Positions 4,888 to 63,906 of a stretch of 64,000 nt of DNA are shown here, in pieces. The stretch comes from Lachnospiraceae bacterium (GTDB taxonomy: Bacteria; Bacillota; Clostridia; Lachnospirales; Lachnospiraceae). The notes under the pieces were generated by a model, which saw only the letters and a program-made list of their open reading frames with translations, did not search any database and was not told the DNA's origin. The stretch lies in contig JAISUG010000058.1 of NCBI GenBank assembly GCA_031272185.1, forward strand, positions 8,203 to 72,202, given 5' to 3'. A program made the position numbers and the translations under genes. Each line of letters opens with the position of its first letter. Position 1 is the first letter of the stretch.

Positions 4888-5077
4888 CAGAGGGCAGTTG
4901 GTAGGGGAAGGATCCGGGGTGTAGTGAGCAGGGTGAAGGGGACAGACCCAGGGAGCAGGGAACAGACCCGGGGAGCAGGGCACAGAGGAAAGCCCCAGGT
5001 TGCAAGGGATAAGGAATAGTGAATGGAGAGCCGCTGGGAAATGAATGGTACGGCGGATGGATCTTCGGGAGGGTAAC

Positions 5078-5983: not shown

Positions 5984-6176
5984 AACCAGTGCGATAAAGC
6001 CAAGATGGTACGGTAAAGCCAAGACGGCACGGGGAAGCGTAGGCGTGCGGGGAAGCCAAGACGCATGGGAACGCCAAGACGGCACGGTAAAGCCAAGACG
6101 GCACGGTAAAGCGTAGGCGTGCGGGGAAGCCAAGACGCGTGGGAACGCCAAGACGGCACGGGGAAGCGGGAACCTG
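5981..6176. repeat. tandem repeat array between argB and argD
   Basis: Units built on TAAAGCCAAGACGGCACGG and GCGTAGGCGTGCGGGGAAGCCAAGACGC recur with a higher-order period of about 75 nt. The first unit (TAAAACCAG...) starts at the argB stop codon. Confidence 0.85.
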
Positions 6177-6228
6177 TGTGGAGTAGCAAAGGGCATCAAT
6201 GGGAAGCAAATGGAAGCGAGGTCGAGAT

Positions 6229-7747: not shown

Positions 7748-10673
7748 CCTGGGTCCAGATCTCGTTGCCGTATATGTCCGTGAGGCGGGCCATGGAGATG
7801 GCCGGGAAGTCGCCTGTGGGGACATTGGAGATCTCCAGGCCGAACCCGCCACCTTCTTCCCAGGCGCTTTCGTCGGGGACCGTGACGGTGCGCCCGAACA
7901 GGTAGGAATCCTGGTATTCGCCGTCATAGCTGTAGTAGTCGCAGATGAAGTCGATACTGTCGCCGGGGTTTAGCAGGGTGTCCACCTTGGCGGCGATGGC
8001 AGAGGCGTCGCCGAGGCTCGCCATGCCGGAATACTCCGTGATGGCCCCCGCCACCACGCCATATGGGTGGTTGTTGTCAAAGACGATGAGCAGGTTCATG
8101 CGCTTTCCATCGCTTTCCCCCGCTTTCGTGACCATGGCAGGCACGTAGCCCATGTAGCGGTAGGCGGCCAGCTCCCCCGACGCGTCGTACTCCTGCTCCT
8201 CTGAAAGCAGGTTGTAGGACACCGCCTGGCCGTCGATGGCCAGCCAATCGCCGCTGTAGGTGAGTATCAGGTTGCCGTCGTCGTCATAGGAGTAGGCATT
8301 GTCCACGCCCATGTCCATGTAGCCTTCGCCGTCGTCCAGGAACAGCCCCAGCGCCACATGCTGCACCAGGGACCATTTTTCCTCGGTCAGAACCAGCACG
8401 GTCTGGCCGCCGGTGGTCTCATACCCCAGGTCTGTCTCCAGGAGGCTGTTGGCAGCAAAGAAGCCGGAGGCTTTCTGCACCCTGTCTACATCCAGCCATC
8501 CCCCCACGTCCGAGGCGGTGAAGCTCTCGTGGCCGCTGCCTGCGGTGGGGGTGGATTTGCCCGAAAGGAACGAGGTCAACAGGGAGGAGACGATTTCCCC
8601 GGTCAGGTCGGAAGAAGCAGCGCCGCCGGAAGAAGAGTCGCCCAGCACGGATCCCAAAAGGCCACCTGCGGCGTCTTGGCTGCCGGAACCTGTGGCCGAG
8701 CCGCCCAGCAGGCCGCCCAGGAGTGAGCCGATGTCGTCGGAGGAGGTGCTTCCGGAGAGCATGTCGAACAAGCCTGTGCCGGCATTGGTCTCGGAGGCCA
8801 CGATCTGGCCGCCGGCCGCCAGGCTGGCGAAACTCTTGATGCACTCGGTGTATTCCTCATCCATGCCGATCTTGTCATAGGTGGAGAGGGCCGTGCTCAC
8901 CTTGCCGATCTGCTGGTAGGGGAAATAGATGGTCAGGCCGTTGGCATTGGTCATGGAGGAGCAGATGCGGTTGTACTTCACGCACCCCCGCAGCGCCTGG
9001 GCGAAAGCCAGGGACTCCTCCGTGCCCAGGTTCTGGGCGAAATGGATCAGGTCAATCTGGTTGATCTTCGACGACGTGGAAAAGTCCCGCGCCGTGGAGC
9101 GGGCGTCCGACACCCGTGTGTATTCGTCGCTGTCCAGCAGTTTCGTGGTGGAGGAGGCAAATTCCCTGAAGGCGTCCGGCACGGTGCCATGGAGCTGGGC
9201 AAGGTCCGTCACGGAAAGGGTGGCCTGGCTGGTGGGTGCGGACCGGGCGCTGGCGGTGACGAACCCGTCGATGATGTCCTTGGCCACGTCCACCGTGGGG
9301 CGGGAGGTGTCGGCGCTAAGGTTGGTGAGCCAGTCGGTGTAATACCAACCTGTGCCGGGCTCCGTGGCTTCCGATGCGATGAGGTAGTCCGCATAGGGTT
9401 CCACCACCAGGGCGGTTTCCAGGGTGGCCATCAGGCAGGCGTCGAACCCCACGAAATCGAACTGCACGCCGCCGCTTTTGAGCGCCGATGCAATCTCGTC
9501 GATGGTCATGGAACCGCCCGGGAACACCTCGTCATAGCCGTACCCGGTGATGGAGCCGCCGCCGTGGTCCCAAAGCACCAGCATGTAGCGGTCTGCCGGG
9601 TAGTGCTGCTTGCCATACTGTATGAAAGAAACCAGGGTGGCGGGGTCGGTCATGGCCTTGGCGCCCAGGTTGCTCTCCAGGGCTTTCAGCCCCCCGCTGA
9701 CCACTTGGTAGATCTGGTTGGTGGAGCTGCTTATCACATCGTTTTTCCATTTCTTGGCACCACCGGTTTCCACTATCAGATTCACGTTGCCGGCGATGGT
9801 GGCTTTGGTCATCTCCTGCAGGTCTGCCGTGGCCATGCCGCCACTTGACTCCAGGTCCGTGCCGCACATGTAGACCAATATGGTCACGGTGTCGGCGCCC
9901 CCGCCCTTGATGGCGGTGTATTTCCCCCGTGACGCATCAGCAACGGTGTAGTCGGGCTCATGGGATTTGTAGTCCGAGGCCAATGTGGTGTTTCCGCCGG
10001 AGCTGGCGGATCCCGTGAGCGCGGAAAGCACGCCGGAGCCGGATGCCCCCGATGACTCAGATGTGCCTGCACTCGATGTCTGGCCGCCGAACAGTGACAC
10101 CAGGTCGCCCAAGCCCGAAGAAGCGGCGCCTGAACCATAGGTGCTTGCCGCATCGGATGCGTTGCCGAACAGGCCCGAGATGCCTGCCGCGCCGGAGGTT
10201 GTCTGGCTGGCGGCGGATGGGGCCGTGGTCCCAGCAGTCTGCAGGACGTCACTGTCCCCGGAAATGAGGCCCATCAGGGAGCTGTCCCCCGAGCACGAGC
10301 GCATGAAAGAAAACACCAACACGACGACAATGATCAGAAGTATGATGGTGAAACAGCCGCAGCCGCCGCGCTTCCGGCCCCCGCCGGAGGAAGACCCGCC
10401 GCCGGATAGTGCGCCGGAGAGCAGGCCGCCGGCCACGCCGCCGATGAGGCCGCCCAGGAGGCTGCCCCCCATGCCGGTTCCAAGGGAACCCCGGTCGGAG
10501 CCTGAACCGCCGCCGAGGCTGCCACCGCCGCCGAGGCTGCCACCGCCGCCCAACCCGGGTCCCCTGCCGCCGCCTACGGGGCCGCCGCCCAGTCCCGTAC
10601 CCTTGCGGTTAAGGTTGCCGTTGCTGCCCGTCACTTTCTTGTCCCTGCCCTGAGGCCTATTTGCTGGTGCCAT
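7737..10673 (-). CDS. membrane-anchored clostripain-like (peptidase C11) protein with low-complexity linkers
   Basis: Catalytic dyad contexts LVLWDHGGG (His) and FVGFDACLMAT (Cys). N-terminal Gly-rich tract of about 100 aa, then TM helix CFTIILLIIVVVLVFSFM and Ser/Gly/Ala linkers. RBS AAGGAAAGGG lies before the ATG at 10673. Confidence 0.8.
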   Translation of the reverse strand: MAPANRPQGRDKKVTGSNGNLNRKGTGLGGGPVGGGRGPGLGGGGSLGGGGSLGGGSGSDRGSLGTGMGGSLLGGLIGGVAGGLLSGALSGGGSSSGGGRKRGGCGCFTIILLIIVVVLVFSFMRSCSGDSSLMGLISGDSDVLQTAGTTAPSAASQTTSGAAGISGLFGNASDAASTYGSGAASSGLGDLVSLFGGQTSSAGTSESSGASGSGVLSALTGSASSGGNTTLASDYKSHEPDYTVADASRGKYTAIKGGGADTVTILVYMCGTDLESSGGMATADLQEMTKATIAGNVNLIVETGGAKKWKNDVISSSTNQIYQVVSGGLKALESNLGAKAMTDPATLVSFIQYGKQHYPADRYMLVLWDHGGGSITGYGYDEVFPGGSMTIDEIASALKSGGVQFDFVGFDACLMATLETALVVEPYADYLIASEATEPGTGWYYTDWLTNLSADTSRPTVDVAKDIIDGFVTASARSAPTSQATLSVTDLAQLHGTVPDAFREFASSTTKLLDSDEYTRVSDARSTARDFSTSSKINQIDLIHFAQNLGTEESLAFAQALRGCVKYNRICSSMTNANGLTIYFPYQQIGKVSTALSTYDKIGMDEEYTECIKSFASLAAGGQIVASETNAGTGLFDMLSGSTSSDDIGSLLGGLLGGSATGSGSQDAAGGLLGSVLGDSSSGGAASSDLTGEIVSSLLTSFLSGKSTPTAGSGHESFTASDVGGWLDVDRVQKASGFFAANSLLETDLGYETTGGQTVLVLTEEKWSLVQHVALGLFLDDGEGYMDMGVDNAYSYDDDGNLILTYSGDWLAIDGQAVSYNLLSEEQEYDASGELAAYRYMGYVPAMVTKAGESDGKRMNLLIVFDNNHPYGVVAGAITEYSGMASLGDASAIAAKVDTLLNPGDSIDFICDYYSYDGEYQDSYLFGRTVTVPDESAWEEGGGFGLEISNVPTGDFPAISMARLTDIYGNEIWTQGLR

Positions 10674-10687
10674 GGCTATCCCTTTCC

Positions 10688-10860
10688 TTTCGTTCGATCT
10701 CGATGATCATGCCCACCCGGTGGGTTCTCCCGGCCAAGTGCGACGTGCTTAGCTTTCTTTGCGATCGCTTTCCATGATCATGTCCACCCGGTGGGTTCTC
10801 CCGGCCAAGTGCGACGTGCTTAGCTTTCCCTTCGCTCGATTTCCATGATCATGTCCACCC
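10688..10860. repeat. about 70-nt tandem repeat (2.5 copies) spanning the rpiB 3' end to the C11-peptidase start
   Basis: TTCCATGATCATGTCCACCCGGTGGGTTCTCCCGGCCAAGTGCGACGTGCTTAGCTTTC recurs. One copy is the last 12 codons plus stop of rpiB. Confidence 0.9.
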
Positions 10861-11311
10861 TCCTGGCGTGGCGGCCGCCCTCGAATGTGGCGCCCAGCCA
10901 CTCATCCACGATCATCTTCGCCAATTCGTCGCCCACCACCCGGGCGCCGAGGCAAAGCACGTTTGAATTGTTGTGCATGCGGGAGAGCTTGGCGGTGTAT
11001 GGCTCGGAGCAGACGCAGGCGCGGATGCCCCGGACCTTGTTTGCCGCCAGGGAGATCCCGACCCCGGTGCCGCAGATGGCTATGCCGAGGTTTGCCCGCT
11101 CACCGGAGGCGCCATCTGTGTTCGCGCCACCCAGGGCGGCGCTTCCCCCCGCCACGGCGCGGGCTACCTTTTCCCCGTATATGGGGTAGTCGCAGCTGGC
11201 GGTGTCATTGGTCCCCAGGTCTATCACTTCGTGACCTTGTGTCGCCAGGTGATCCTTGATGGTGTTTTTCAGGGCGATGGCAGTGTGGTCGTTGCCTATG
11301 GCGATTTTCAT
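10820..11311 (-). CDS. rpiB: ribose-5-phosphate isomerase B
   Basis: MKIAIGNDH...CGTGVGISLAANK...RHARRV, typical RpiB/LacAB. Carries an extra Gly/Ala-rich segment of about 20 aa (about 11095-11160). Confidence 0.9.
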   Translation of the reverse strand: MKIAIGNDHTAIALKNTIKDHLATQGHEVIDLGTNDTASCDYPIYGEKVARAVAGGSAALGGANTDGASGERANLGIAICGTGVGISLAANKVRGIRACVCSEPYTAKLSRMHNNSNVLCLGARVVGDELAKMIVDEWLGATFEGGRHARRVDMIMEIERRES

Positions 11312-11467
11312 GGTCGCTCCTGTTCTATTCTGGTTTTATGTTTTCTCACTCGCTTTGTTCCGACTGTGGGATGCTTCGCCGTGCGTTCGTCGTGAATGCG
11401 GATGATAATCCCATAGAGTCTTGATATTTCGGGCATAGTCAGAAAACCCCTTTCAATACTGTCCGTA

Positions 11468-12724
11468 TCATACCCCCATGCTCTGACAGTAGCATCTTTC
11501 CAGGTTCTCCATGCGGGAGGTCATGTTCACCAGCAGCAGGTCGGCGACGGTGAATGCGGCCATGGATTCCACCACCACCACCGCCCTGGGCACGATGATG
11601 GGGTCGTGGCGGCCCTTGATTTCCGTAGTCACTTCCCGGGCATCCCTTGTCACGGTCCGCTGGGGCAATGATATGGATGCGGTGGGCTTGATGGCGGCCC
11701 GCACCGTGATGGGGCTGCCGTCGCTTAAGCCGCCCAGGATACCACCGGCGTGGTTGGTGGTCTTGGTGACGCGCCTGGTCGAATCCAGGGCGAATGCGTC
11801 GTTGTTTGTGGTACCCAGGCTTTCGGCTGCCTGGAAACCGTCGCCGATCTCGAAGCCCTTCACCGCGCCGATGGAGCAGATGGCCTGGGCCAGGCGTGCG
11901 CTTAGTTTGTCAAACACGGGCTCGCCGACGCCCGGGGGCATCCCGGTGATGACGCACTCCACCACGCCGCCTGCGGAGTCACAGTGCGCCATGATGCCTT
12001 CAAGGTAGGACTGTGCCCGCGCCGCCGCCCCTGCATCCGGCATGTACAGGGGGTTTTGGCGGCAGGTGGCGATGGCGGCAGCGAGTCGGTCATCCAGCGG
12101 GCCGGGTGGTCCGTCGGGGGATAGGGGGCTTTGCGTGCGGGCATATCCCGATCCGGCGTTTGCCGGCCGGTCATCGGAGCCGCCGGTATTGCCGGTGGTC
12201 ATGTGAGGCTGCCTATGGTGCAGGGGGCTTGGCGCATGTACGGGTCCCACGGACAGGGTGTAGGCATGTACTTCGATCCCCAGCCGTTCCAATAGTTTCT
12301 TGGCTATGGCTCCCGCCGCCACCCGCGCGGTGGTTTCCCGGCCGGAGGAGCGGCCGCCGCCCCGGTAATCCCTAAAGCCGTACTTCGCATCGAAACCGAA
12401 ATCAGCATGTCCCGGGCGGTAGATGTCCTTGATCTCGCTATAGTCCCTGCTGCGCTGGTCTGTGTTTCGTACCAGCAGCGAGATGGGCGTGCCGGTGGTC
12501 AGGCCCTCGAAAACGCCGGACAGGATCTCCACCAGGTCGGCTTCCTGCCTGGCTGTGGCATAGGGGCTTTGGCCGGGCCGGCGCCTGTCCAGCATCCCCT
12601 GTATGTCCGCCTCGCACAGCTCCAGCCCTGCGGGCACGCCGTCCACCACGGCGCCGATCCCTTTGCCGTGTGATTCGCCCCAGGTGGTCATGCGGAGGAT
12701 GGTGCCTATCGAAGAACCTGCCAT
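11468..12724 (-). CDS. aroC: chorismate synthase
   Basis: TTWGESHGKG N-terminal signature and conserved C-terminal RHDPIIVPRAV. RBS AAGGAAAGG. Insertion of about 50 aa at about 12090-12235. Confidence 0.92.
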   Translation of the reverse strand: MAGSSIGTILRMTTWGESHGKGIGAVVDGVPAGLELCEADIQGMLDRRRPGQSPYATARQEADLVEILSGVFEGLTTGTPISLLVRNTDQRSRDYSEIKDIYRPGHADFGFDAKYGFRDYRGGGRSSGRETTARVAAGAIAKKLLERLGIEVHAYTLSVGPVHAPSPLHHRQPHMTTGNTGGSDDRPANAGSGYARTQSPLSPDGPPGPLDDRLAAAIATCRQNPLYMPDAGAAARAQSYLEGIMAHCDSAGGVVECVITGMPPGVGEPVFDKLSARLAQAICSIGAVKGFEIGDGFQAAESLGTTNNDAFALDSTRRVTKTTNHAGGILGGLSDGSPITVRAAIKPTASISLPQRTVTRDAREVTTEIKGRHDPIIVPRAVVVVESMAAFTVADLLLVNMTSRMENLERCYCQSMGV

Positions 12725-12743
12725 GTACGTACCTTTCCTTAAA

Positions 12744-13799
12744 TTACCCCAGTTTCACCAGCGCGCAGCAGTTGGGTTCGTTGACCGGTTCGGGGTTGCC
12801 GTTCATGATGAGCAGCCCACGTTCGTAGTCCACCGCAAAGAACGTGATGGTGTTGCTCTCGTGGTTGATGCTGGCGATGTGCTGGGCATCGGGGAACACG
12901 CACAGATCCTTGGGGTATTCGCCGCTGATGGGCAGGCAAATGAGCAGCTCAAGCATCCCGGTCTTTTTATCCCTGGAAAACACGCTGACGGTGTCTTCGC
13001 CTGCGCTGGAGCAGTAAAGGTAATGCTGGTCGGCGGAAAAGCGGAACGTGCACGCCGCCCGCAGGGAGTTGGGTACATCGAAATCCGTGGTGGGGATGGT
13101 CTGGATCTTTTCCAGCTTCGGCACCCGGTCGCCGCTCTCGTATGTATACACTTCGATGATATTTTTCAGCTGGTACATCAGGTACATGTATCTGCCGTCG
13201 TCGCTGAAGCGGAACATCCGGGGCGCGGATTCCAGCTCGAAATGGATGGAGTCCGCCAGCATCATCCCATCGGTGTCTTTGGGGTGGCGGTAGACCTTGA
13301 TCTGGTCGATGCCCTCGTCGGCGGCCATGATGAATTTGCCGTCAGGGGAGAGGCGGATGCAGGTGACGTGTGGGCTGAAGTTGCGCTCCGCCACGCTGCC
13401 CAGGCCTTTGTGGAAGACGCCGGCGAGGATGGGCCCCACGGAACCGTCCGCCTGGAGCTTCAGGATCGTGGCTTTCCCGTCATGGTAGCCGGACACGAAG
13501 AGGTACTTTTCGTCCGGGTCGGTGGCCAGGTGGCAGCCACGCATGCCCTTGATGTTGCGGGTGTTCAGCAGGGAGAGGTTCCCGTCTTCCAGTATGCGAA
13601 AAGCAACGACCCCTTCGTCGGCGATGGAGTAGAGGGTTTTCTTGGTCCGGGAGGCAAGCAGGTAGGCGGAGTTGTTCACGTCCACTTCGCAGCGTTTTTG
13701 GAACCGGCCCCTTTTGGCGTCCGCATCATATACCGTGATGCCCCGGGCGGTGCCATTGTAAGAATATGAGCCGACATAAGCCATGTACGATGAATCCAT
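12744..13799 (-). CDS. lactonase, 7-bladed beta-propeller family (6-phosphogluconolactonase-like)
   Basis: Sequence pattern YVGSYS...GITVY...HLATDPDEKYLFVSGYHDG...PRMFRFSDDGRYMYL is typical of the YbhE/Pgl-type family. ATG at 13799 follows AAAGGGA. Confidence 0.7.
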   Translation of the reverse strand: MDSSYMAYVGSYSYNGTARGITVYDADAKRGRFQKRCEVDVNNSAYLLASRTKKTLYSIADEGVVAFRILEDGNLSLLNTRNIKGMRGCHLATDPDEKYLFVSGYHDGKATILKLQADGSVGPILAGVFHKGLGSVAERNFSPHVTCIRLSPDGKFIMAADEGIDQIKVYRHPKDTDGMMLADSIHFELESAPRMFRFSDDGRYMYLMYQLKNIIEVYTYESGDRVPKLEKIQTIPTTDFDVPNSLRAACTFRFSADQHYLYCSSAGEDTVSVFSRDKKTGMLELLICLPISGEYPKDLCVFPDAQHIASINHESNTITFFAVDYERGLLIMNGNPEPVNEPNCCALVKLG

Positions 13800-47386: not shown

Positions 47387-48589
47387 ATGGGTAGTTATGG
47401 AAAAATCGCATTGACGCATGAGGATGAAGAGACGGTCATCCGCATTTGCCAGGATCTGATACGTGCCAAGGGCGGCTCGGGGCACGAGGAGGCCGCTGGG
47501 CAGGTGTTGGTTTCTTATTATAGACAGTTGGGTTACGACGAGGCCCTCATAGATGACTATGGGAACGCCGTCGGGGTGATAAACGGGAACAGGCCGGGGA
47601 AGTGCCTGGTTTTCGACGGGCACATCGACACGGTGCAGGCGGTTGAAAGCCAATGGAGTGTGGACCCCTTTGGGGGCGTGCGCAAGGACGGGCGCATCTA
47701 TGGGCGGGGGACCAGCGACATGAAAGGAGCCATCGCCGCATTCACTCTGGCCGCGCCGGTGTTTGCCCGGGCTTGCGGGAGGGATTTCCACGGCAAGATC
47801 GTGGTGGCGGGAACCGTCCAGGAAGAGGCATATGAAGGCGTGGCCTCGGTGGGCATAAACGACGCATACCACCCCGACTTGGTGATCATCGGCGAGGCAT
47901 CGGACATGAACCTGAAGATCGGCCAGCGGGGCCGTGCGGAGATATTGGTGGAGACCATCGGCACCACCGCACATAGCGCACACCCGGAGCGGGGGAACAA
48001 CGCCATACTGGCCATGTGCAAGGTGATCGACGCCATCGGGCGCATACCCACACCGGAAGATCCCAAGCTGCACAAAGGGATCATGGTGCTGACGGACATC
48101 ATTTCCGAACCGTTCCCGGCGAAAAGCTGCGTGCCATACCGCTGCCTGGCCACTTATGACAGGCGGCTTCTGAAAGGAGAAACCAGGGAGAGCGTGCTGG
48201 CGCCCATATCGGAGGCGCTTGCGGCGCTGGAGGCCGCAGACCCCACGGTCCGGACCAAGGTTTCCTATGCCCATGAGACATCCCGGTGCTATACGGGGAA
48301 GACGATTTCATCGGAGAAATTCTTCCCGGCGTGGCTGTTTGAGGAGTCTGAGGGGTTCGTGCAGACCGCGCTGGCCGGCCTGCGTGCAGATGGGTTTGAC
48401 CCCCTGCTTAGCGTGTATGATTTTTGCACCAACGGCTCGCTGTACGCCGGGGAGCTGGGCATCCCCACCCTGGGGTTCGGGCCGTCAAGGGAGGACCTGG
48501 CCCACAGCGTAGACGAGTATATCGAAATCGGGGAACTGACGAAAGCGGCGGCGTGCTACGTGTCCGTGCTTGGGGCTCTGACGAAGTAG
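47387..48589 (+). CDS. M20-family peptidase, YgeY-like
   Basis: FDGHIDTV, GRGTSDMKG and EEAYEG motifs, with overall resemblance to the YgeY/ArgE/DapE group. Confidence 0.75.
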   Translation: MGSYGKIALTHEDEETVIRICQDLIRAKGGSGHEEAAGQVLVSYYRQLGYDEALIDDYGNAVGVINGNRPGKCLVFDGHIDTVQAVESQWSVDPFGGVRKDGRIYGRGTSDMKGAIAAFTLAAPVFARACGRDFHGKIVVAGTVQEEAYEGVASVGINDAYHPDLVIIGEASDMNLKIGQRGRAEILVETIGTTAHSAHPERGNNAILAMCKVIDAIGRIPTPEDPKLHKGIMVLTDIISEPFPAKSCVPYRCLATYDRRLLKGETRESVLAPISEALAALEAADPTVRTKVSYAHETSRCYTGKTISSEKFFPAWLFEESEGFVQTALAGLRADGFDPLLSVYDFCTNGSLYAGELGIPTLGFGPSREDLAHSVDEYIEIGELTKAAACYVSVLGALTK

Positions 48590-48598
48590 CGATATAGG

Positions 48599-48790
48599 TA
48601 TTGGCAGATGGGCCGATGGGTTGAGGCGGTTTGGGCGCGAGCCGGCGAAAGAGACGTATGCGCTTGAGGGTATTGGCCGATGGGCCGATGGGTTGGGACG
48701 GTTTGGGCGCGAGCCGGCGAAAGAGACGTATGCGCTTGTGGGTATTGGCCGGTGGCCGATGGGTTGGGACGGTTTGGTGGTGTGGGTATG
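48599..48790. repeat. about 70-nt tandem repeat, 2.7 copies, filling the peptidase-racemase spacer
   Basis: GGTATTGGC.GATGGGCCGATGGGTTG.G.CGGTTTGGGCGCGAGCCGGCGAAAGAGACGTATGCGCTTG.G. The last partial copy runs into the ATG at 48788. Confidence 0.9.
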
Positions 48791-49876
48791 CCGAGGTTGA
48801 CCATAGATTTGGGCATCATCAGGTCCAATGTGCGCGCCGTGCGGGATTTGTGCGCCGGGCATGGCATAGGGATCACCGGGGTGACGAAAGTGTTTTGCGG
48901 CGACCCGGTGGTGGCGAAAGCGTTCCTGGACGCCGGGGTCACCAGGCTGGGGGATTCTCGTGTCGCAAACCTAAGGAGGCTGCAGTTCCTGGATGGGGAG
49001 AAATGGCTCATCCGTATGCCTGCCCCCTCGGAGATCCCCGATGTGGTGCGGTATGCGGACGTTTCCTTAAACAGCGAATGGCATACGCTGTCTCTGCTTT
49101 CCGAAGAGGCGCTGCGCCAGGGGAAACGCCACAAGGTGATCCTGATGGCGGACCTGGGCGACCTGCGGGAAGGGTATGTGGACTACGGCGAACTGCGCAG
49201 GGTGGCGCAGATGGTGGTCCGGGCCGATGGGCTGGAACTCTATGGCATCGGCACGAACCTGAGCTGTTTCTCATTCATACACCCGGATACCGGGAAGATG
49301 CGGCAGCTGCTGGGGCTGGCGGGTTTGGGGAACGAAACCCTTTCGGCGGCTGCGGATGTGCCGATGTCACCGGTGGCTTTCGTGATTTCCGGGGGCAATT
49401 CCGCCTCATTGCACCTCATGATGGAAAATGGCATCCCCCCAGGGGTGAACAACCTTCGTCTGGGGGAAAGCCTGCTGTTCGGCAAGGAGCGCTGCCACTA
49501 CACATATCTGCCGGGGACCAGGCGGGATGCGTTCATCCTGTCGGCAGAGGTCATCGAGCTCAAGGAAAAGCCCTCCGTCCCTTGGGGGGAAGCCGGGGTG
49601 GACAGCTACGGGAACCCACCGCCGGTGCGTGAGGACAAGGGGGTGCGCTCACGTGCGATACTGGCCCTGGGCAAACAGGACTGCGACGTGGAGACCATGC
49701 GCCCGGTGGACGGCGCTGTCGCGATCTTAGGCGCCAGCAGCGACCATATGGTGCTGGACGTGACGGACAGCGCCCGCCGCTATGCCCTGGGGGATACGGT
49801 GGAGTTCGAGCTGGGGTATTTTGCCCTGATGCGGGCATACACCAGCGGGTATGTGGAGAAAGTGTACGTGGGGTGA
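48788..49876 (+). CDS. alanine-racemase-fold PLP enzyme (ornithine racemase / YhfX-like)
   Basis: N-terminal IDLGIIRSNVRAV...GVTKVFCGD (PLP-Lys context) and C-terminal beta domain. ATG at 48788. Confidence 0.7.
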   Translation: MPRLTIDLGIIRSNVRAVRDLCAGHGIGITGVTKVFCGDPVVAKAFLDAGVTRLGDSRVANLRRLQFLDGEKWLIRMPAPSEIPDVVRYADVSLNSEWHTLSLLSEEALRQGKRHKVILMADLGDLREGYVDYGELRRVAQMVVRADGLELYGIGTNLSCFSFIHPDTGKMRQLLGLAGLGNETLSAAADVPMSPVAFVISGGNSASLHLMMENGIPPGVNNLRLGESLLFGKERCHYTYLPGTRRDAFILSAEVIELKEKPSVPWGEAGVDSYGNPPPVREDKGVRSRAILALGKQDCDVETMRPVDGAVAILGASSDHMVLDVTDSARRYALGDTVEFELGYFALMRAYTSGYVEKVYVG

Positions 49877-49985
49877 GTGTGCTAGGCGGGTCTTTGCCCG
49901 CCAGACAGCATGAAGCTACTGATAGACGAGCTACGCGGTGTGTGTGAGTGTGCTGGGCAGACCTTTGCTCGCCAGACAGGGGATC
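49868..49985. repeat. 70-nt duplication starting at the racemase stop codon
   Basis: GTGAGTGTGCTAGGCGGGTCTTTGCCCGCCAGACAG (49873-) and GTGAGTGTGCTGGGCAGACCTTTGCTCGCCAGACAG (49943-). The first copy holds a GGCGGG/CCCGCC hairpin. Confidence 0.85.
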
Positions 49986-50267: not shown

Positions 50268-50296
50268 TTGACAATCCGTGCAAGGGTGGATATAAT
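50268..50296 (+). promoter_or_regulatory. consensus sigma-A promoter
   Basis: TTGACA (50268-50273), exactly 17 nt spacer, TATAAT (50291-50296). About 510 nt upstream of the oxidoreductase start. Confidence 0.7.
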
Positions 50297-50315
50297 AGCC
50301 ATATAAAATATACTA

Positions 50316-50336
50316 TTCATATTAAAATAATATGAA
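50316..50336. promoter_or_regulatory. 9+9 perfect palindrome TTCATATTA-AAA-TAATATGAA (candidate operator)
   Basis: Read directly. About 20 nt downstream of the -10 element. Confidence 0.45.
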
Positions 50337-50520
50337 ATATGAAGCGGGGGAAGCATGGGCCAGGGGAAGGAAATATGAAAACGCCGGGTGCAGCTTCGAT
50401 GATGCGGAGCGGTTCATGGGGAAGCATGAAACAAGGAAAAGAAATATGCAAACGCATTATGGCCAGTGGAACAGAAATATGAAAACGCATTGTGGCAAGG
50501 GGAAAGAAATATGAAAACGC
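50334..50520 (+). repeat. five dispersed/tandem copies of GAAATATGAAAACGC in the leader
   Basis: Copies at 50334, 50370, 50441, 50474 and 50506. The last three are spaced 32-33 nt apart. Each is preceded by a purine-rich GGAA/GGAAA tract and contains an ATG. Confidence 0.85.
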
Positions 50521-50808
50521 ATTATGGCCAGGGGCTGCAGGGGCTGCTCGACCAGACTGGCCAGCCCGGCCAGCCCGGCCAGCCCAGCTAGTCTGGTGAC
50601 TACGATTTTGGCCGCATCGCCCAAAGGCGGGGCACCCGATGTATCAAATGGGACACCGTGCCGGAGGGGGTCATCCCATTGTCCATAGCTGACAGCGAGC
50701 GAGAAAAGACAGGCGAGAAGAGACGGGCGGGAAGTGACAGGCGACGGGCGAAGAGGTTCCTGGCCCAGTTCAGTCTTTCGGACAATTATACCATTTAGGG
50801 GGTTTGAT

Positions 50809-53766
50809 ATGGCTAGGTTTGGGATGTTGGTGGATTTGGACCGTTGCACGAACTGCTATTCCTGCGTGGTGACGTGCAAGCAGTATTTCCACACGAGGGA
50901 CGGGGTGGACTACAACCAGGGGGCGACCATCGAGTGGGGGGAGGGGGCGGACGCCCACGTGAAGTACCTCTCCACTTCCTGCAACCACTGCGACGATGCG
51001 CCCTGCCATGCGGTTTGCCCCACGGGGGCCACGTCCAAGAGCCCGGAGGGGCTGGTGCTCACCAATGACGACCTGTGCATTGGCTGCGGCGCCTGCGTCA
51101 AGGCATGCCGGTACAACCAGCGGTTCTTGACCGAACTGGGGGACGGGCGGTTCGTCGCGGAAAAATGCACGTTGTGCCAGGACAGGCTGGCCAGGGGGGA
51201 AGAGCCCATATGCGTGGCGCTTTGCCCGGGCAGGTGCCGGATATTTGGCGACCTGGACGACCCGGAGAGCGAGATCAATTACTACATCAAGCTCTATGGT
51301 GCGATGAGGCTGAAAGGCACCCGCACGTATTACGTGGTGCCGGAGGGGATGCCCATCCCGGAGGTCGCAAGGCGGGGGGGATTGGGAACCGCAGCCGCAA
51401 ACAATGTGGCTGTGCCCACCGTGGAGTGGCGCCATGCGACGGTGGCCGACGGCGTGAAGCCGGGGTGGGAACTGGAAGACCTGGGGCAGTGGAAGCGCAC
51501 CCCTGCCGATGATGACTACCAGGAGCTGGTGGACGGTTTGTTCCGGGCCAGGGACTTGGGGCGCGACCTGCTGCGGGTGAACCACCCGGACCCGCCCAAA
51601 GAGGGAGGGCAGTACAAATACAGCCACTGCGTCATGTGCAACCACGTGCCCCGCTGCGGCGTGAAGGCATTGGTCAAAGACGACAAGATCATTCGACTGG
51701 AACGGCGGGAAAAATACGGCAATGAGACGCTGTGCCCCATCGGGGCGGCCTCGGTGCAGGACATCTATGCGCCTGACAGGCTCCTTCACCCCATGCGGCG
51801 CACCAACCCCAAAGGCGAGCCCAGCCGGTGGGAGCGCATCTCTTGGGAAGAGGCCTATGCCGAGATAGCCGAGAAGTTCAATGACATCAAGGCCAGGTAC
51901 GGCGCGGAGAAAGTGCTCTTCATGACCGGGGACCCGAAAGAGCCCCGGGCCATCATGCAGCGGCTGGCGTACACATTCGGCAGCCCCAATTTCGGCACGG
52001 AGTCCTCCACCTGCTCCACGGCCACCACCATCGCCAGCAAGCTCATCTACGGGATCAATGGGCGCGCGGCGGTGATGGCGGGCGCCATGGGCGCGGCGCC
52101 GGACATCAACGACACGTCGGTGTGCATCATCTGGGGCAACAACCCGGGCAACAGCGCGGCGTGGAGCTATGACCGCCTGAAGACCACCAAGGAGTTCGGC
52201 AGCGTGAAATACATCGTGGTGGACCCCCGCGTCACCAGCACCGTGGAGAACTTCGCGGACGTGCACATCCAGCTAAGGTGCGGCACCGACGGGGCGTTGG
52301 CGCTGTTCTTCGCCGACCGGATCATAAAAAGCGGCAACTACGACAAGGAATTCATCGAGAAATGGGCACATGGGTTTGAAGAGTATGCGCAGCTGGCGGC
52401 CGAGTACACATTGGAAAAGACCGCCCGTATCTGCGACGTGCCCGAGCAGGTGCTGGAGGAGGCGGCGAAACTGCTGACGCAGCGGACGAAACCCATCACC
52501 ATAAAGGGGTCATCCGCCCAGCCCCACCACACCAATGGCACGGACAACTACCGCGCCATGATGCTGCTCATCCCCCTGACGGGCAGCCTGGACGTGGAGG
52601 GCGGACATGTGATACCCACCGACATGCTGGACATCGACCTGTCGGGGTCGTCTTTCAAATTCGCCAGGCTGGACCTCTACCCCGGGATCCGCCACCTGAG
52701 GGTGGACACGCCCTACCATAAGATGTGGGACGTGGTGGACATCGACGGGAACATCCAGATCAATTCCCTGCCGGAGTATGTGAAGACCGGCGCGATCCGC
52801 GCATGCCTGATGCTGGGCGGCAACGCCATGATGTGGGGCCAGACCCATGAGTACCAGCAGGCTTTCAAGGACATGGACTTCGTGGCGGCGGTGGATTTCC
52901 GCGACAACCCATGGACCCATGACTATGTGGATATGCTGCTGCCGGCGGCCATGAGCTACGAGCGCAGCGCGCCGCTGACTTTCGCCGGACGCCGGATCTT
53001 CCTGCGGGAGCCCATCGTGCCGCCCCGCGGGGAGGCGCGCTCGGATTATCGCATCTGCTGCGACATCGGCGCTACGCTGGGGTACCCCGAGGTGTTTTTC
53101 GGGGGCGGGGAGAAAGCGGAGGAGGAGTGCATCCGGGAGGTGCTGCGCACGCTGGGTGGTTCCAGGGAAATCACACTGGAGGAGCTGCGGGCGGCACACC
53201 CCGACGGGGTGATGCTGCCCATGCGGGGCGGCCCGAAATACAAAAAATGGGAACTGGGGCTACTGCGCCTGGACGGGAAACCGGGGTTTGAGACGCCCAC
53301 CGGCAAAGTGGAGTTCGCATCGGAGGTGCTGCGGGAAAACGGGCTGGACCCACTGCCCCGCTACAGGGAACCCGTGTACAGCCCGCTGTCCACGCCGGAT
53401 GTGGCGAAGCGTTTCCCGCTGGTTATGTGCTGCGGCTCCCGCACGCCATTCTACTCCAATGCGAAGGAGCGGGAACTGCCATGGCTGCGCCGGTTCCTCC
53501 CCGAACCCGTGGTGAAGCTCAACCCCAAGGATGCGCAGTCTCGGGGGCTTCGCGACGGCGACACGGTGCGGGTGAACGCGCCGGTGAACGAAAAGGGCAT
53601 CACGCTGAAGCTCAAAACCAGCGAGACCATCAAGCCGGGGATGATCGACATCCTCCACGGCTGGCCCCAGGCGGACGCCAACGAGCTCATCACCAGGGAT
53701 TTCGACCCCATCAGTGGGTTCGTGCCGTTCAGGGAGGGGCTGTGCGAGGTCAGCGCGGCAAGGTGA
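50809..53766 (+). CDS. fused 4x[4Fe-4S] ferredoxin (DmsB/NrfC-like) and molybdopterin oxidoreductase (DmsA-family) protein
   Basis: N-terminus has four Cys clusters (CTNCYSCVVTC, CNHCDDAPCHAVCP, CIGCGACVKAC, CTLCQDRL...CVALCP). Next comes a Mo/W bis-MGD [4Fe-4S] motif (HCVMCNHVPRCGV...CPIG), then MopB and the C-terminal molybdopterin-binding barrel. ATG at 50809 follows AGGGGG. No Tat signal. Confidence 0.85.
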   Translation: MARFGMLVDLDRCTNCYSCVVTCKQYFHTRDGVDYNQGATIEWGEGADAHVKYLSTSCNHCDDAPCHAVCPTGATSKSPEGLVLTNDDLCIGCGACVKACRYNQRFLTELGDGRFVAEKCTLCQDRLARGEEPICVALCPGRCRIFGDLDDPESEINYYIKLYGAMRLKGTRTYYVVPEGMPIPEVARRGGLGTAAANNVAVPTVEWRHATVADGVKPGWELEDLGQWKRTPADDDYQELVDGLFRARDLGRDLLRVNHPDPPKEGGQYKYSHCVMCNHVPRCGVKALVKDDKIIRLERREKYGNETLCPIGAASVQDIYAPDRLLHPMRRTNPKGEPSRWERISWEEAYAEIAEKFNDIKARYGAEKVLFMTGDPKEPRAIMQRLAYTFGSPNFGTESSTCSTATTIASKLIYGINGRAAVMAGAMGAAPDINDTSVCIIWGNNPGNSAAWSYDRLKTTKEFGSVKYIVVDPRVTSTVENFADVHIQLRCGTDGALALFFADRIIKSGNYDKEFIEKWAHGFEEYAQLAAEYTLEKTARICDVPEQVLEEAAKLLTQRTKPITIKGSSAQPHHTNGTDNYRAMMLLIPLTGSLDVEGGHVIPTDMLDIDLSGSSFKFARLDLYPGIRHLRVDTPYHKMWDVVDIDGNIQINSLPEYVKTGAIRACLMLGGNAMMWGQTHEYQQAFKDMDFVAAVDFRDNPWTHDYVDMLLPAAMSYERSAPLTFAGRRIFLREPIVPPRGEARSDYRICCDIGATLGYPEVFFGGGEKAEEECIREVLRTLGGSREITLEELRAAHPDGVMLPMRGGPKYKKWELGLLRLDGKPGFETPTGKVEFASEVLRENGLDPLPRYREPVYSPLSTPDVAKRFPLVMCCGSRTPFYSNAKERELPWLRRFLPEPVVKLNPKDAQSRGLRDGDTVRVNAPVNEKGITLKLKTSETIKPGMIDILHGWPQADANELITRDFDPISGFVPFREGLCEVSAAR

Positions 53767-53872: not shown

Positions 53873-53913
53873 ACACCCGCAGCCGCAGCTGTTACAACGG
53901 CTGCGGTGTTTTT
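53873..53913 (+). terminator. Rho-independent terminator
   Basis: ACACCCGCAGCCG...CGGCTGCGGTGT stem (one bulge) followed by TTTTT. Confidence 0.75.
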
Positions 53914-54088
53914 GGCTGTCAAACTCGGGGGACACTTCCGGCGCACCGGAGAGCCCCTGCGGGTCTCCCATCGCAGTGCCTAATGTGCGCTAGAGTGGGC
54001 CCATGCCCGCCCGGAGGCTCATCGGCTGGATAGGGAGTGGCCTGTAACCTGTGTGGAGTTTATATGGAAATTTCCAGTGGCACGCCCC

Positions 54089-60834: not shown

Positions 60835-60918
60835 GGGCTTGTATATGCCCATGATCGTGTCTTTTGACCGTCGGATGGGCGTTTCTACCAACTGCCGTAA
60901 CAGTTGACTACAAGGGCC
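60835..60918 (+). ncRNA. purine (guanine/xanthine-type) riboswitch-like aptamer with enlarged P2/L2
   Basis: P1 is CTTGTA / TACAAG and P2 is GCCCAT / ATGGGC. J2/3 is GTTTCTAC. P3 is CAACTG-CCGTAA-CAGTTG. J3/1 is ACT. The J2/3, L3 and J3/1 strings match the conserved core of the B. subtilis xpt guanine aptamer (..GUUUCUACC...CCGUAA...GACUA..). Confidence 0.6.
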
Positions 60919-61014
60919 ACCAAAGAGCGGGATGCCAAAGCGGGTGAAGGTGTCTGCGGCGATTTGCGGTGGGAGGTCGATTGCGGGCGGTTTTTTTATT
61001 TAACAGGAGACGAT

Positions 61015-63906
61015 ATGGGGATCGGGACGTCGCAGGTGCGGGTGGACGCATACGAAAAGGTAACGGGCGGGGCGAAATACACGGCGGACATGGAGCCCAA
61101 AGGCACGCTGGTGGCGAAACTGGTGCGCAGCACCGTCGCCAATGGCCGGGTGCTGGGGTTTGATTTGAAAGAGGCTTGGGCTGTGGAGGGTGTGGAGGAC
61201 ATCGTCACCTGCTTCGACGTGCCGGAACACCCCTACCCCACACCCGGGCACCCCTGGTCGGTGGAACCCTCCCACCAAGACGTGGCGGACCGGCGGATGC
61301 TCAATGAACGTGTGCGCATATACGGGGACGACATTGCGGTGGTGGTGGCCCGTGACGAGGTGGCCGCCAAGAGGGCCGCGGGGAAGATACGGGTGGAGTA
61401 CGAGGAGTACAGGCCGCTCCTGACGGTGGCACAGGCGCTGGGCAGGGACATCTCGCCATGGTGGGCGAAAGAGGCGGCACAGTCTTTGCCGCCGGGGTCG
61501 CTAGGTACCCCTGCCGGTGAAGAGTCAGGCGCGGCCCGAAATACATTCGTCCGTGAACGGGCACCGGCCCCTGACTGTATTGGGGACGACAGGACAGGGT
61601 GGGGCGAAGGCGATGCCACGGCGATCCACGAGGAGTGTGCGGACAACTGCCTGAAGCACACCGGGTTTCGCCTGGGGGAGGGCGCATTCCACGACTTCGA
61701 GGGCATGGACGGCGTGGCGGTGGTGCAGAAAGTGTACAGGACCCAGACCGTGCAGCATTGCCACATCGAGGTCCCGGTGTCTTTCGCATACATGGAACAT
61801 GACAGGGTGACGGTGGTGAGCTCCACCCAGATCCCCCACATCGTGCGGCGGGTGATCTCCCAGGCCTTGGGGCTGGACATGGGGCGCATCCGGGTGATAA
61901 AGCCCTACATCGGCGGCGGGTTCGGCAACAAGCAGGAAGTGCTCTACGAACCGCTCAATGCGTTCCTGGCCATGCGCCTGGGCCGCCCGGTGAAAATCGA
62001 GCTAAGCAGGGAGGAGACCCTGGCCTGCACCAGGGTGCGGCACGCCATGGAGTTCCAGCTGGGCGCCGCGGCCACGCCTGACGGGCGGCTTCTGGGGCGC
62101 AAATTCGTGGCCTACTCCAACCAAGGGGGCTACGCCTCCCACGGCCATGCGTTGATTGCCAATGCCGCGGGGGAGTTCAAACAGATCTACCGGGACGAAA
62201 AGGTGCTGGAATCCGACAGCTACACGGTATACACGAACATTTCCACAGGCGGGGCCATGCGGGGATATGGGATCCCCCAGGGCGTCTTCGCAGGGGAGGC
62301 GTTGATGGACGACCTCGCGCGAAAGATCAGCATGGACCCCCTGGAGTTTCGCCTGCGCAACTGCGTCCGGGAGGGGTACGAAGACCCCCACACACATGTG
62401 ATGTTCCGCAGCTACGGCCTGCGCCGCTGCATCGAGGTGGGGCGGGAGCGGTTCGGGTGGGACGAGAAGAGGGCGAGGTACACCCGGGAAAACGCGGATC
62501 TTGCGGATGGGGCGGGGACAGACAAAGGCACCGATGCCGCGGGTGCGGGGGTATCGACAGGCGCTGTGAAGACAGACGTTGCGGCGATGACAGGCGTATG
62601 CGCTGATACGGCAGGTGCGGGGGCCGGACAAAAGCGCCGGGGCGTGGGCATGTCCATATTCATATACAAGACGGGCGTCTACCCCACCTCGCTGGAAACG
62701 GCATCTTGCCGCATGGTGCTCAACCAAGACGGTTCGGTGCAGCTCCAGATGGGCGCCACGGAGATCGGCCAGGGGGCAGACACGGTGTTCACCCAGATGG
62801 CGGCCCAGGTGCTGGGGATACCCGAAAGCAAGGTACACATCATCTCTTTCCAGGACACGGACGTGACGCCTTTTGACACGGGTGCATACGCATCCCGCCA
62901 GTCCTACGTCAGCGGGAAAGCGCTCAAGCAGACGGGGGAACTCCTGAAAGAAAAGATCCTGGGGTATGCGGCCGGGATGCTCCGGGGCGAATCGCAGGGC
63001 GGACCGCAGGGCAAATCGCAGGGCGGATCGCAGGGCAAATCGCAGGGCAAATCGCAGGGCGAATCGCAGGGCGGACCGCAGGACGGACCGCAGGGCGGAC
63101 CGCAGGACGGATCGCAGGTCGAATCGCTGGGCGAATCGCAAGCCGAGGCCGAGGGGGCGGCAGCGGGGGGCGTAGCTGTCCCGTATGACGTTCTGGGTAC
63201 AGATGGTGCAGGCCCCGGGGCGGCGCATGCTGCCAGCATAGCTGCGCATGGACGGCACCCGGCGGTGTCCGGCCTGGATATCGCAGGTGATTTCATCGTC
63301 GAGAAAGCGACGGGGCGACGGCTATTGAGCGTGGGCGACGTGGCCATGACGGCATTATACAGTCTGGATGAATCGGTGCACATCACCGCGGAGTCCACGG
63401 TGCATTGCAAGGACAACACGTTTTCCTCCGGGGCGTGCTTCGCGGAGGTGGAGGTGGACATCCCCCTGGGCAAGGTGAAAGTGCTGAACTTGCTCAATGT
63501 ACACGACTCCGGCACCCTCTTAAACCCGCAGCTGGCCAGGGCGCAGGTGCACGGGGGCATGAGCATGGGGCTGGGGTTCGGGATGTATGAGGAGCTGCTC
63601 TACGACGAAAAGGGCCGCCCCCTCAACGACAACCTGCTGGACTACAAGCTGCCCACTGCCATGGACACGCCAGACCTGCAGGTGGAGTTCGTGGAGGTGG
63701 AGGACCCCACGGGGCCTTTCGGCAACAAGGCGCTGGGCGAGCCGCCGGCCATCCCGGTGGCCCCGGCCATACGCAATGCGATCCTCCACGCCACGGGGGT
63801 GGCGTTTGACAGCCTGCCCATGACGCCCCAGAAACTGGTGGAAGGGTTCTGGAAAGCGGGGCTGACGAAGCGGCCCCAACCACATGTACAGGGAATGGCC
63901 GGGTGA
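61015..63906 (+). CDS. xanthine dehydrogenase-family molybdopterin-binding subunit
   Basis: N-terminal a/b-hammerhead (VDAYEKVTGGAKYTAD), Moco motifs (YIGGGFGNKQE, GATEIGQGADT) and C-terminal GEPPAIPVAPAIRNA. ATG at 61015 follows AGGAGA. Two low-complexity insertions, including a 12-nt in-frame repeat at 62987-63150. Confidence 0.88.
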   Translation: MGIGTSQVRVDAYEKVTGGAKYTADMEPKGTLVAKLVRSTVANGRVLGFDLKEAWAVEGVEDIVTCFDVPEHPYPTPGHPWSVEPSHQDVADRRMLNERVRIYGDDIAVVVARDEVAAKRAAGKIRVEYEEYRPLLTVAQALGRDISPWWAKEAAQSLPPGSLGTPAGEESGAARNTFVRERAPAPDCIGDDRTGWGEGDATAIHEECADNCLKHTGFRLGEGAFHDFEGMDGVAVVQKVYRTQTVQHCHIEVPVSFAYMEHDRVTVVSSTQIPHIVRRVISQALGLDMGRIRVIKPYIGGGFGNKQEVLYEPLNAFLAMRLGRPVKIELSREETLACTRVRHAMEFQLGAAATPDGRLLGRKFVAYSNQGGYASHGHALIANAAGEFKQIYRDEKVLESDSYTVYTNISTGGAMRGYGIPQGVFAGEALMDDLARKISMDPLEFRLRNCVREGYEDPHTHVMFRSYGLRRCIEVGRERFGWDEKRARYTRENADLADGAGTDKGTDAAGAGVSTGAVKTDVAAMTGVCADTAGAGAGQKRRGVGMSIFIYKTGVYPTSLETASCRMVLNQDGSVQLQMGATEIGQGADTVFTQMAAQVLGIPESKVHIISFQDTDVTPFDTGAYASRQSYVSGKALKQTGELLKEKILGYAAGMLRGESQGGPQGKSQGGSQGKSQGKSQGESQGGPQDGPQGGPQDGSQVESLGESQAEAEGAAAGGVAVPYDVLGTDGAGPGAAHAASIAAHGRHPAVSGLDIAGDFIVEKATGRRLLSVGDVAMTALYSLDESVHITAESTVHCKDNTFSSGACFAEVEVDIPLGKVKVLNLLNVHDSGTLLNPQLARAQVHGGMSMGLGFGMYEELLYDEKGRPLNDNLLDYKLPTAMDTPDLQVEFVEVEDPTGPFGNKALGEPPAIPVAPAIRNAILHATGVAFDSLPMTPQKLVEGFWKAGLTKRPQPHVQGMAG

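Follow-up and report, generated by a model that had tools for sequence, protein, structure and literature searches.

How does a reductase of a class that normally works outside the cytoplasmic membrane come to be encoded as one leaderless chain, and what could it reduce inside the cell? Molybdenum- or tungsten-dependent reductases with a bis-pyranopterin guanine dinucleotide cofactor (Mo/W-bisPGD) are textbook examples of multi-subunit enzymes exported by the twin-arginine translocation (Tat) system. A gene in a 64,000-nucleotide stretch of DNA from a Lachnospiraceae bacterium (assembly GCA_031272185.1, contig JAISUG010000058.1, positions 8,203 to 72,202 of the forward strand; hereafter the window) raises this question, in that its single product joins a four-cluster ferredoxin part (beta) to a catalytic part (alpha) of the MopB or dimethyl sulfoxide (DMSO) reductase superfamily. 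We find that the fused form is almost confined to bacteria without TatC, and propose that it probably acts on an imported organosulfur compound. The gene is composed as follows (window coordinates):

50809–53766, plus strand: coding sequence of the 985-aa fused reductase (P0001), a stop-free frame of 2958 nt
50809–51363, plus strand: beta part, residues 1–185, a DmsB/PsrB/NrfC-type ferredoxin (Fer4_11, Fer4_7, PDB matches, Cys groups)
51364–51612, plus strand: linker, residues 186–268, about 80 aa (AlphaFold, alignments, hydropathy comparison)
51628–51735, plus strand: FS0 motif C274-x2-C277-x5-C283-x25-C309 for the proximal [4Fe-4S] cluster of the catalytic part (alignment)
51778–53070, plus strand: MopB domain, residues 324–754 (PF00384, Molybdopterin, 145.9 bits, above cut-off)
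52012–52014, plus strand: codon of Cys402 in the motif GTESSTC, predicted Mo/W ligand (invariant in the family; alignment to 2e7z)
53440–53733, plus strand: molybdopterin-dinucleotide-binding barrel, residues 878–975 (PF01568, Molydop_binding, 63.1 bits, above cut-off)

The product is a 100% match to one database protein. Translation likely starts at the ATG at 50809, which lies 6 nt downstream of an AGGGGG tract (50797–50802) and gives the same MARYGM... beginning as in the homologues. Within the beta part, Fer4_7 (residues 12–74) and Fer4_11 (residues 51–148, 66 bits) overlie 16 cysteines in four groups (C13/16/19/23, C58/61/66/70, C90/93/96/100 and C120/123/135/139), sufficient for four predicted [4Fe-4S] clusters; together with the Fer4_11 fold, these place it in the DmsB/PsrB/NrfC four-cluster ferredoxin family. 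The catalytic part comprises the C-terminal ~715 residues and belongs to the MopB superfamily by PF00384, PF01568, the Cys ligand, the four FS0 cysteines and its fold. C274, C277, C283 and C309 are invariant across 38 aligned family sequences, Asn278, directly after the second of them, is kept in at least 90%, and C283 aligns with the third cluster cysteine of acetylene hydratase. All 20 cluster cysteines and the ligand cysteine are conserved in the family alignment, which includes forms encoded by one gene (fused) and by two (split). In acetylene hydratase (2e7z), the residue aligned with Cys402 is the cysteine of ...AMYMC... (index 138 of the chain), presumably Cys141, the tungsten ligand of that enzyme; this answers for the Mo-ligand position, which the preliminary description of this DNA had proposed to inspect by alignment.

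No signal or membrane helix was found in the fused reductase, whose maximum 19-residue Kyte–Doolittle mean is 1.16 and falls inside an Fe–S motif. A start at the in-frame GTG at 50734 would lengthen the protein by a hydrophilic stretch of 25 residues that lacks a hydrophobic h-region, and therefore provides no Tat or Sec leader either. Since such a leader is lacking, the enzyme is predicted to reside in the cytoplasm. A MobA-like gene is present in the source genome, scoring below the model cut-off. Taken together, the product is on balance probably a soluble cytoplasmic single-chain Mo/W-bis-pyranopterin reductase, with metal binding predicted from conserved ligands. The preliminary description of a beta-then-alpha single polypeptide is thus borne out by the frame, the Pfam order and 23 other genomes, as are its claims of a missing Tat signal (hydropathy and start-site inspection) and of four Cys motifs ahead of the catalytic [4Fe-4S] motif, MopB domain and barrel (sequence and Pfam).

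The fused reductase falls outside the named classes of its superfamily, and no NCBIfam model reached its cut-off: Fdh-alpha scored 273 bits (cut-off 666), PhsA (NF012032) was second-best with 217.9 bits (cut-off 694), and DmsA/YnfE (TIGR02166) gave 181.7 bits (cut-off 777.7). The ArrB, DsrO, NrfC and TtrB models match the beta part below their cut-offs. In the PDB, the best sequence matches of beta residues 1–160 are ArrB (6cz7_B) and PsrB (2vpw_B), and that of the catalytic part is acetylene hydratase (2e7z, E = 4e-50). The earlier label "DmsA-family" holds in the broad sense of the MopB superfamily and fails for DmsA/YnfE proper, which is ruled out by the TIGR02166 score, a Cys rather than Ser ligand and the absence of a Tat leader. 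An acetylene hydratase function is excluded by Asn278 in place of the catalytic Asp13 and by the fused four-cluster wire, and membership of PsrA/PhsA by the PhsA score and the absence of an anchor gene nearby. On sequence grounds, the family forms an uncharacterised Cys-ligated branch of its own in the vicinity of acetylene hydratase, Psr and the catechol dehydroxylases. Our literature search found no characterised member of the family and no description of this fusion or its link to Tat loss, and the fusions discussed in a review of MopB proteins are of the ActB and FdsA/Nqo3 types only (PMC10100899). The prospect, raised in the preliminary description, of a common and already characterised enzyme class therefore fell away, as no characterised fusion was found.

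The distribution of the fusion was established in two ways. When 5.8 billion proteins were searched by a word index, about 35 fused homologues of full length and 55–83% identity were recovered, annotated as from Oscillospiraceae, Clostridiales Family XIII, Gracilibacteraceae, Clostridia and Coriobacteriaceae. In a scan of one genome per species, in which the frames of 80 related loci were parsed, a single open reading frame of 921–1013 aa with both parts occurred in 23 loci, mostly in metagenome-assembled genomes (MAGs) of Oscillospiraceae and Family XIII; nearly all 23 genomes are MAGs of one accession block (JAIR/JAIS/JAIT), presumably from termite guts. In a 50%-identity representative library the family amounts to a handful of clusters with next relatives at no more than 42% identity, and is therefore compact.

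A maximum-likelihood tree of the catalytic parts recovered the fused sequences (22 rows, plus two incomplete at contig ends) as one clade with full support (SH-like approximate likelihood ratio test, SH-aLRT, 100). This clade nests within a radiation of B-then-A, Tat-type enzymes, where split Raoultibacter sequences and a long-branched fused Coriobacteriales sequence join it at a node (SH-aLRT 99) whose branching order is unresolved. The architecture is unusual, as first described, when set against the usual separate subunits; it is not unique, given a clade that spans at least 24 genomes. Beta-alpha and alpha-beta fusions also occur independently in more distant MopB clades. Among the wider acetylene-hydratase-like proteins we observed uncharacterised fusions (P0168, P0285, P0286, P0148, P0149, P0151, P0240, P0271 and P0272) whose partners are a class-V aminotransferase (cysteine-desulfurase-like), a GltD-like NAD(P)H flavoprotein, an [FeFe]-hydrogenase module and Fer4_11, the last in both orders.

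The nearest split relatives share 49–63% identity over the catalytic part and have the same FS0 and GTESSTC motifs. They are found in Raoultibacter, mouse-gut Lachnospiraceae, Tissierellaceae/Sedimentibacter, Christensenellaceae, Fretibacterium, Desulfovibrio, Deferribacteraceae, Neomoorella and Desulfitobacterium, where they are annotated as "formate dehydrogenase", "acetylene hydratase" or "molybdopterin oxidoreductase". In these loci a B gene (217–360 aa) lies directly upstream of a ~760-aa A gene, and the A subunits start with the twin-arginine motif RRxFLK, for example MPKITRRQFLK or SRRTFLKGSAALTG. Many B proteins end in a membrane helix (19-residue Kyte–Doolittle means of 1.8–2.2) that the fused reductase does not have. 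A cytochrome-b-like gene separates B and A in some loci, tatC, mobA and moaC are often near, and only more distant relatives (no more than 46% identity) show the usual A-then-B order. The split Raoultibacter orthologue (L002/L029) is preceded, on the opposite strand, by genes for a 507-aa LuxR/GerE-type regulator (5366–6889) and a TorD-like chaperone (4628–5335), an arrangement typical of Eggerthellaceae respiratory reductase loci.

Comparison with the split relatives shows that the fused gene arose from neighbouring B and A genes of a two-subunit reductase, most simply through one principal fusion and perhaps a second. In the split enzyme, the A subunit is exported by Tat and the B subunit is tethered by the C-terminal membrane helix; upon fusion the leader of A and the tether of B were lost, and a hydrophilic linker with a conserved helix took their place. 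The linker indeed fills the place of these two elements in alignments with the split relatives. AlphaFold predicts it as disordered at residues 185–218 (predicted local distance difference test, pLDDT, below 50) and as ordered at about 221–250 (pLDDT 83–91), with a conserved, confidently predicted helix at residues 237–255. The preliminary description had thus noticed the linker correctly, although its length of about 100 aa shrinks to residues ~186–268, of which only 185–218 are disordered. For the whole chain, the model has a pLDDT of 85.7 and a predicted template modelling (TM) score of 0.89; on these values the beta and catalytic parts are predicted to be docked as one assembly. The best PDB fold for the model is acetylene hydratase (TM score 0.82, 24% identity), followed as second distinct fold by PsrA (TM score 0.80).

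Loss of the leader coincides with loss of the export system. TatC was not found in the source genome (3.12 Mb, 94.8% complete), and is present in 4 of the 23 other fusion-bearing genomes versus 21 of the 23 split-form genomes (4/24 versus 21/23 with the source genome included; Fisher p = 2e-7). Genome incompleteness does not explain this result, since the SecY control is present in 22 of the 24 fusion-bearing genomes. The leaderless single chain is the form found in lineages without Tat.

What the relocated enzyme might reduce is suggested by the operons of its homologues. About 13 unique fused loci have ATP-binding cassette (ABC) importers of polar-amino-acid or SsuA-like type next to the fusion, and seven have sulfur enzymes dependent on pyridoxal phosphate (PLP) there. 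In L001 (74% identical), a gap of 2 nt separates the fusion from a downstream PatB-family C–S lyase, and a polar-amino-acid importer comes next; in L017 (75%) PatB and the same importer lie upstream, and in L053 (71%) the importer lies downstream. A PLP enzyme of cystathionine-lyase/synthase type sits within the importer operon just upstream of the fusion in L039 (62%), a cystathionine-lyase-type enzyme lies next to it in L008, and CysK/CysM-like genes adjoin it in L005, L006/L035 and L024. The fused loci of Family XIII and Coriobacteriaceae combine SsuA-like importers with an AprA/FrdA-like flavoprotein. Nitrogenase-like genes are near the fusion in L006 and L024, MtaA-type corrinoid methyltransferase sets occur in L005, L008 and L026, and a B12-binding corrinoid protein adjoins the fusion in L023. 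By BLAST, the sulfur PLP enzymes were recovered in 7 and the binding proteins in 10 unique fused loci, whereas the partner proteins, including two importer substrate-binding proteins, matched nothing but one flavoprotein (L032) in 27 split-form loci whose total length is similar. The binding proteins adjacent to the fusion include those at 12089–12937 of L001 and 15769–16848 of L006. Glycyl-radical enzymes beside two fused loci had no equivalog match and are uninformative.

Two of these loci have further features. On L005, a single metagenome contig, two paralogous fused reductases (1–605 and 10001–12925) lie to either side of a glycyl-radical enzyme, its activase and a complete corrinoid methyltransferase set of two URO-D/MtaA-like genes, RACo, a B12-binding protein and DUF1638. 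L006 (11830–18877) and L024 carry pairs of NifD/K-like (Oxidored_nitro) genes with an SsuA-like binding protein, a CysK-like enzyme, AprA/FrdA-like flavoproteins and a small ferredoxin, an island that may serve sulfur salvage and include a methylthio-alkane-reductase-like system.

Because the active site is cytoplasmic, the substrate must be imported, and judging from the operon partners it is most likely a small, amino-acid-like organosulfur compound. Our first guess is methionine sulfoxide, S-methylcysteine sulfoxide or DMSO, since a sulfoxide explains both the methyl-thioether-processing neighbours and the C–S lyases. A soluble low-potential donor, either ferredoxin or a partner flavoprotein, would feed the distal cluster, and electrons would pass along the four clusters to FS0 and the Mo/W centre for a two-electron reduction of the imported compound. 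The reduced product could then undergo C–S cleavage, or its sulfide or methanethiol could enter sulfur assimilation. Respiration with methionine sulfoxide, S-methylcysteine sulfoxide and DMSO is known from gut Eggerthellaceae, where it proceeds through a tungstate-sensitive, unidentified molybdoenzyme (10.1101/2022.12.26.521950). We regard this as a precedent and not as evidence of identity.

A bolder reading, which we hold to be less likely than not, combines these elements: a membrane-tethered extracytoplasmic enzyme may have been relocated by one fusion in Tat-less Clostridia and then wired to ABC importers and C–S lyases, giving an undescribed cytoplasmic pathway that reduces oxidised organosulfur (such as a sulfoxide of methionine or S-methylcysteine, DMSO, or a persulfide or thiosulfonate) at a Cys-ligated Mo/W centre. 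Several observations weigh against our main reading, that of a cytoplasmic reductase for an imported organosulfur compound. The substrate inference depends wholly on homologues with 60–76% identity; in the window itself the fused gene is monocistronic between its own promoter and terminator, and the genes upstream, for a YgeY hydrolase and an ornithine-racemase-like enzyme, are not sulfur enzymes. The window's own amino-acid ABC transporter was considered as the cognate importer and is not supported, given the terminator in between; its binding protein has no similarity to those of the homologues' importers and its permease is only ~33% identical, so that the two are not orthologous. The TatC correlation is confounded with lineage, and the corrinoid methyltransferase sets fit aryl methyl-ether demethylation as well. 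The catalytic part is also 31% identical over 334 N-terminal residues to catechol dehydroxylases of the Gordonibacter type and 34% over 251 residues to those of the Eggerthella type, as measured against 400-aa partial references. To our knowledge, the characterised S-oxide reductases of the superfamily all have a Ser (or Asp) ligand and not Cys. Cys402 therefore favours either S–S chemistry of the Psr/Phs type or something else.

This ligand makes Psr/Phs-like cleavage a serious rival to sulfoxide reduction. With the same architecture, the enzyme would reductively cleave an S–S or S–SO3 bond in the cytoplasm, acting on cysteine persulfide (from imported cystine and a PatB-type lyase), S-sulfocysteine, thiosulfate or polysulfide, and the neighbouring cysteine synthase would fix the released sulfide. 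PsrA and PhsA share the Cys ligand, PhsA is the second-best NCBIfam model (218 bits), PsrA is the second-closest distinct fold (TM score 0.80) and the beta part is nearest to ArrB and PsrB. The adjacent binding proteins weakly resemble cystine-binding proteins, beside adjoining CysM/CysK-like and PatB genes. However, the Psr, Phs and Ttr models all fall far under their cut-offs, there is no NrfD/PsrC-type partner, no rhodanese or sulfur-carrier genes were seen, and MtaA-type methyltransferase and nitrogenase-like neighbours suit methyl-thioether products better. We therefore rate S–S or S–SO3 cleavage as unlikely, while the strongest of the alternatives to our organosulfur reading.

A cytoplasmic aromatic dehydroxylase of the catechol type, as a fused analogue of the two-subunit Gordonibacter-type enzymes, is more doubtful still. 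It would act on hydroxylated aromatics arising from O-demethylated, lignin-derived methoxy-aromatics, in keeping with the corrinoid methyltransferase, RACo and B12-protein sets that flank four unique fused loci and with the presumed termite-gut origin of many of the MAGs. Besides the identities given above, acetylene hydratase is the nearest characterised relative of both the catechol dehydroxylases (PMC7028382) and the fused reductase, and the Gordonibacter-type enzymes are likewise pairs of a cytoplasmic catalytic subunit and an Fe–S protein (PMC11887054). Yet FS0 reads CxxCx5C in the family versus C-x6-C-x3-C in Gordonibacter-type sequences (PMC11887054 supplement), and the accessions of the Raoultibacter orthologues do not appear in the supplementary files of that study, including its table of catechol dehydroxylase accessions. 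The nearest split relatives are Tat-exported, which Gordonibacter-type enzymes are not; no transporter of the major facilitator superfamily (MFS) or LuxR-type regulator adjoins the fused genes; and sulfur-enzyme neighbours are commoner and more tightly coupled.

Cytoplasmic reduction of an inorganic oxyanion (selenate or selenite, arsenate, nitrate or chlorate) for assimilation or detoxification appears very improbable. It would draw on the YgeY hydrolase gene 2 kb upstream and the xanthine dehydrogenase gene 7 kb downstream in the window, on the nitrate binders among NMT1-type binding proteins, and on ArrB as the nearest relative of the beta part; a B-then-(C)-then-A gene order is also that of ttrBCA and srdBCA. 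Nevertheless, the ArrA, NasC, NapA and YnfE/F models score far under their cut-offs, the YgeY block is a separate transcription unit with its own terminator, and the operon partners of the homologues are amino-acid-type importers and C–S lyases. That the fusion stems from a missed stop or a frameshift, an artefact which the preliminary description had named as a refutation, or else from chimeric assembly of the 119-contig draft genome, or that the gene is a pseudogene in decay, is negligibly probable, as the frame is open over 2958 nt, the same fusion recurs in 23 other, independent assemblies from several studies, and the 20 cluster cysteines, the ligand cysteine and the confident linker helix are conserved.

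The signals that flank the fused gene in the window are the following:

50268–50296, plus strand: sigma-70-type promoter, TTGACA-17 nt-TATAAT, 12 of 12 consensus positions (sequence match alone)
50297–50808, plus strand: repeat-rich leader of ~510 nt, which includes the ribosome-binding site (RBS) AGGGGG at 50797–50802 (repeat scan)
53882–53917, plus strand: intrinsic-terminator-like hairpin (11 pairs, 7 of them G–C) with a T-rich tail (terminator scan)

The consensus promoter, repeat-rich leader and terminator (53882–53907 without the end of the T-rich tail) named in the preliminary description were thus recovered by the scans, and the domain scan of flanking genes agreed with it in finding no membrane-anchor or TorD-like domain. 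The leader contains a ~33-nt unit repeated four times (50364–50534) and a 14-nt-spaced unit repeated three times (50696–50744), and a 36-nt unit occurs twice at 49873–49979, in the spacer near the fused gene. The ~33-nt unit itself contains an RBS-like tract and an ATG. No Rfam model matched the leader at E ≤ 1, so that no S-adenosylmethionine or molybdenum-cofactor riboswitch offers a clue to the substrate, and an Rfam scan of the 24 fused loci returned tRNAs only. Among 93 loci, the repeat core GAAATATGAAAACGC is confined to the source genome; we therefore rejected the repeats as a conserved regulatory device, since this core is absent from the homologous loci, and the leader says little about the enzyme.

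Upstream of the promoter lies a block of genes for a GlnH-like binding protein, a permease, an ATPase, the YgeY hydrolase and the ornithine-racemase-like enzyme, which ends in a terminator. Within it, the YgeY-family "selenium metabolism-linked" hydrolase (420 bits, above cut-off) and the ornithine-racemase-like PLP enzyme occupy 47387–49876, after the amino-acid ABC transporter, and a guanine-riboswitch-controlled xdhA is found at 60904–63906; the YgeY/racemase block and xdhA resemble parts of the ygeW–ygfT purine/selenium region of E. coli. No TorD/NarJ-type chaperone (PF02613) was matched in the whole source genome, which, despite this absence and that of TatC, encodes three MopB proteins. 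The second is a 758-aa Fdh/Phs-like protein adjoining a multidrug and toxic compound extrusion (MATE) transporter (C3), and the third is a GltD-like flavoprotein fused to a NuoG/Fdh-like MopB part (C13).

A leaderless single chain with a full electron wire would be a convenient minimal model for intramolecular electron transfer, and may be easier to express than its relatives as it requires no Tat export and apparently no TorD-type chaperone. The split between fused forms in TatC-less hosts and two-gene forms in TatC-bearing ones suggests that export capacity can shape enzyme architecture, and the added importers suggest that it can shape pathway topology as well. Fused and split forms together are widespread in anaerobes of animal guts and digesters, and the operon partners of the homologues yield a short, testable list of organosulfur substrates. 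If the reading as a relocated organosulfur reductase is true, the enzyme would bring a new class of catalysis to this part of the MopB family and, in gut ecosystems poor in sulfur, a means of salvaging sulfur or disposing of electrons.

Among characterised systems, acetylene hydratase of Pelobacter acetylenicus (2e7z) is likewise cytoplasmic and has an FS0 cluster and a Cys ligand at the aligned position. However, it is a non-redox monomer without a four-cluster partner, its FS0 spacing is CxxCx3C rather than CxxCx5C, and Asp13 stands beside its second cluster cysteine where the fused reductase has Asn278. The Gordonibacter-type catechol dehydroxylases (Dodh, Gp Hcdh and Cldh) are acetylene-hydratase relatives that pair a cytoplasmic Mo-bisPGD subunit of ~750–800 aa with a small four-cluster protein (PMC7028382, PMC11887054), but as separate subunits, with another FS0 motif and with MFS transporters and LuxR-type regulators as neighbours. 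ActB of alternative complex III offers a natural single-chain fusion of a MopB-like and a PsrB/ArrB-like part (PMC10100899); unlike the fused reductase, it is arranged alpha-then-beta, retains neither the pterin cofactor nor most of the clusters, and has no catalytic role in the membrane complex to which it belongs. The PsrAB(C), PhsAB(C) and ArrAB systems combine a Cys-ligated Mo-bisPGD catalytic subunit with a four-cluster beta subunit, as separate, Tat-exported polypeptides in A-then-B order and, for Psr and Phs, with an NrfD-type anchor, whereas the fused reductase is one chain with beta first and has neither leader nor anchor. Closest of all, though uncharacterised, are the split B-then-A relatives, which share FS0, GTESSTC, the beta-before-alpha order and 49–63% identity with the fused reductase, and differ from it in their two genes, the twin-arginine leader of A, the usual C-terminal membrane helix of B, a cytochrome b in some loci, and hosts that possess TatC.

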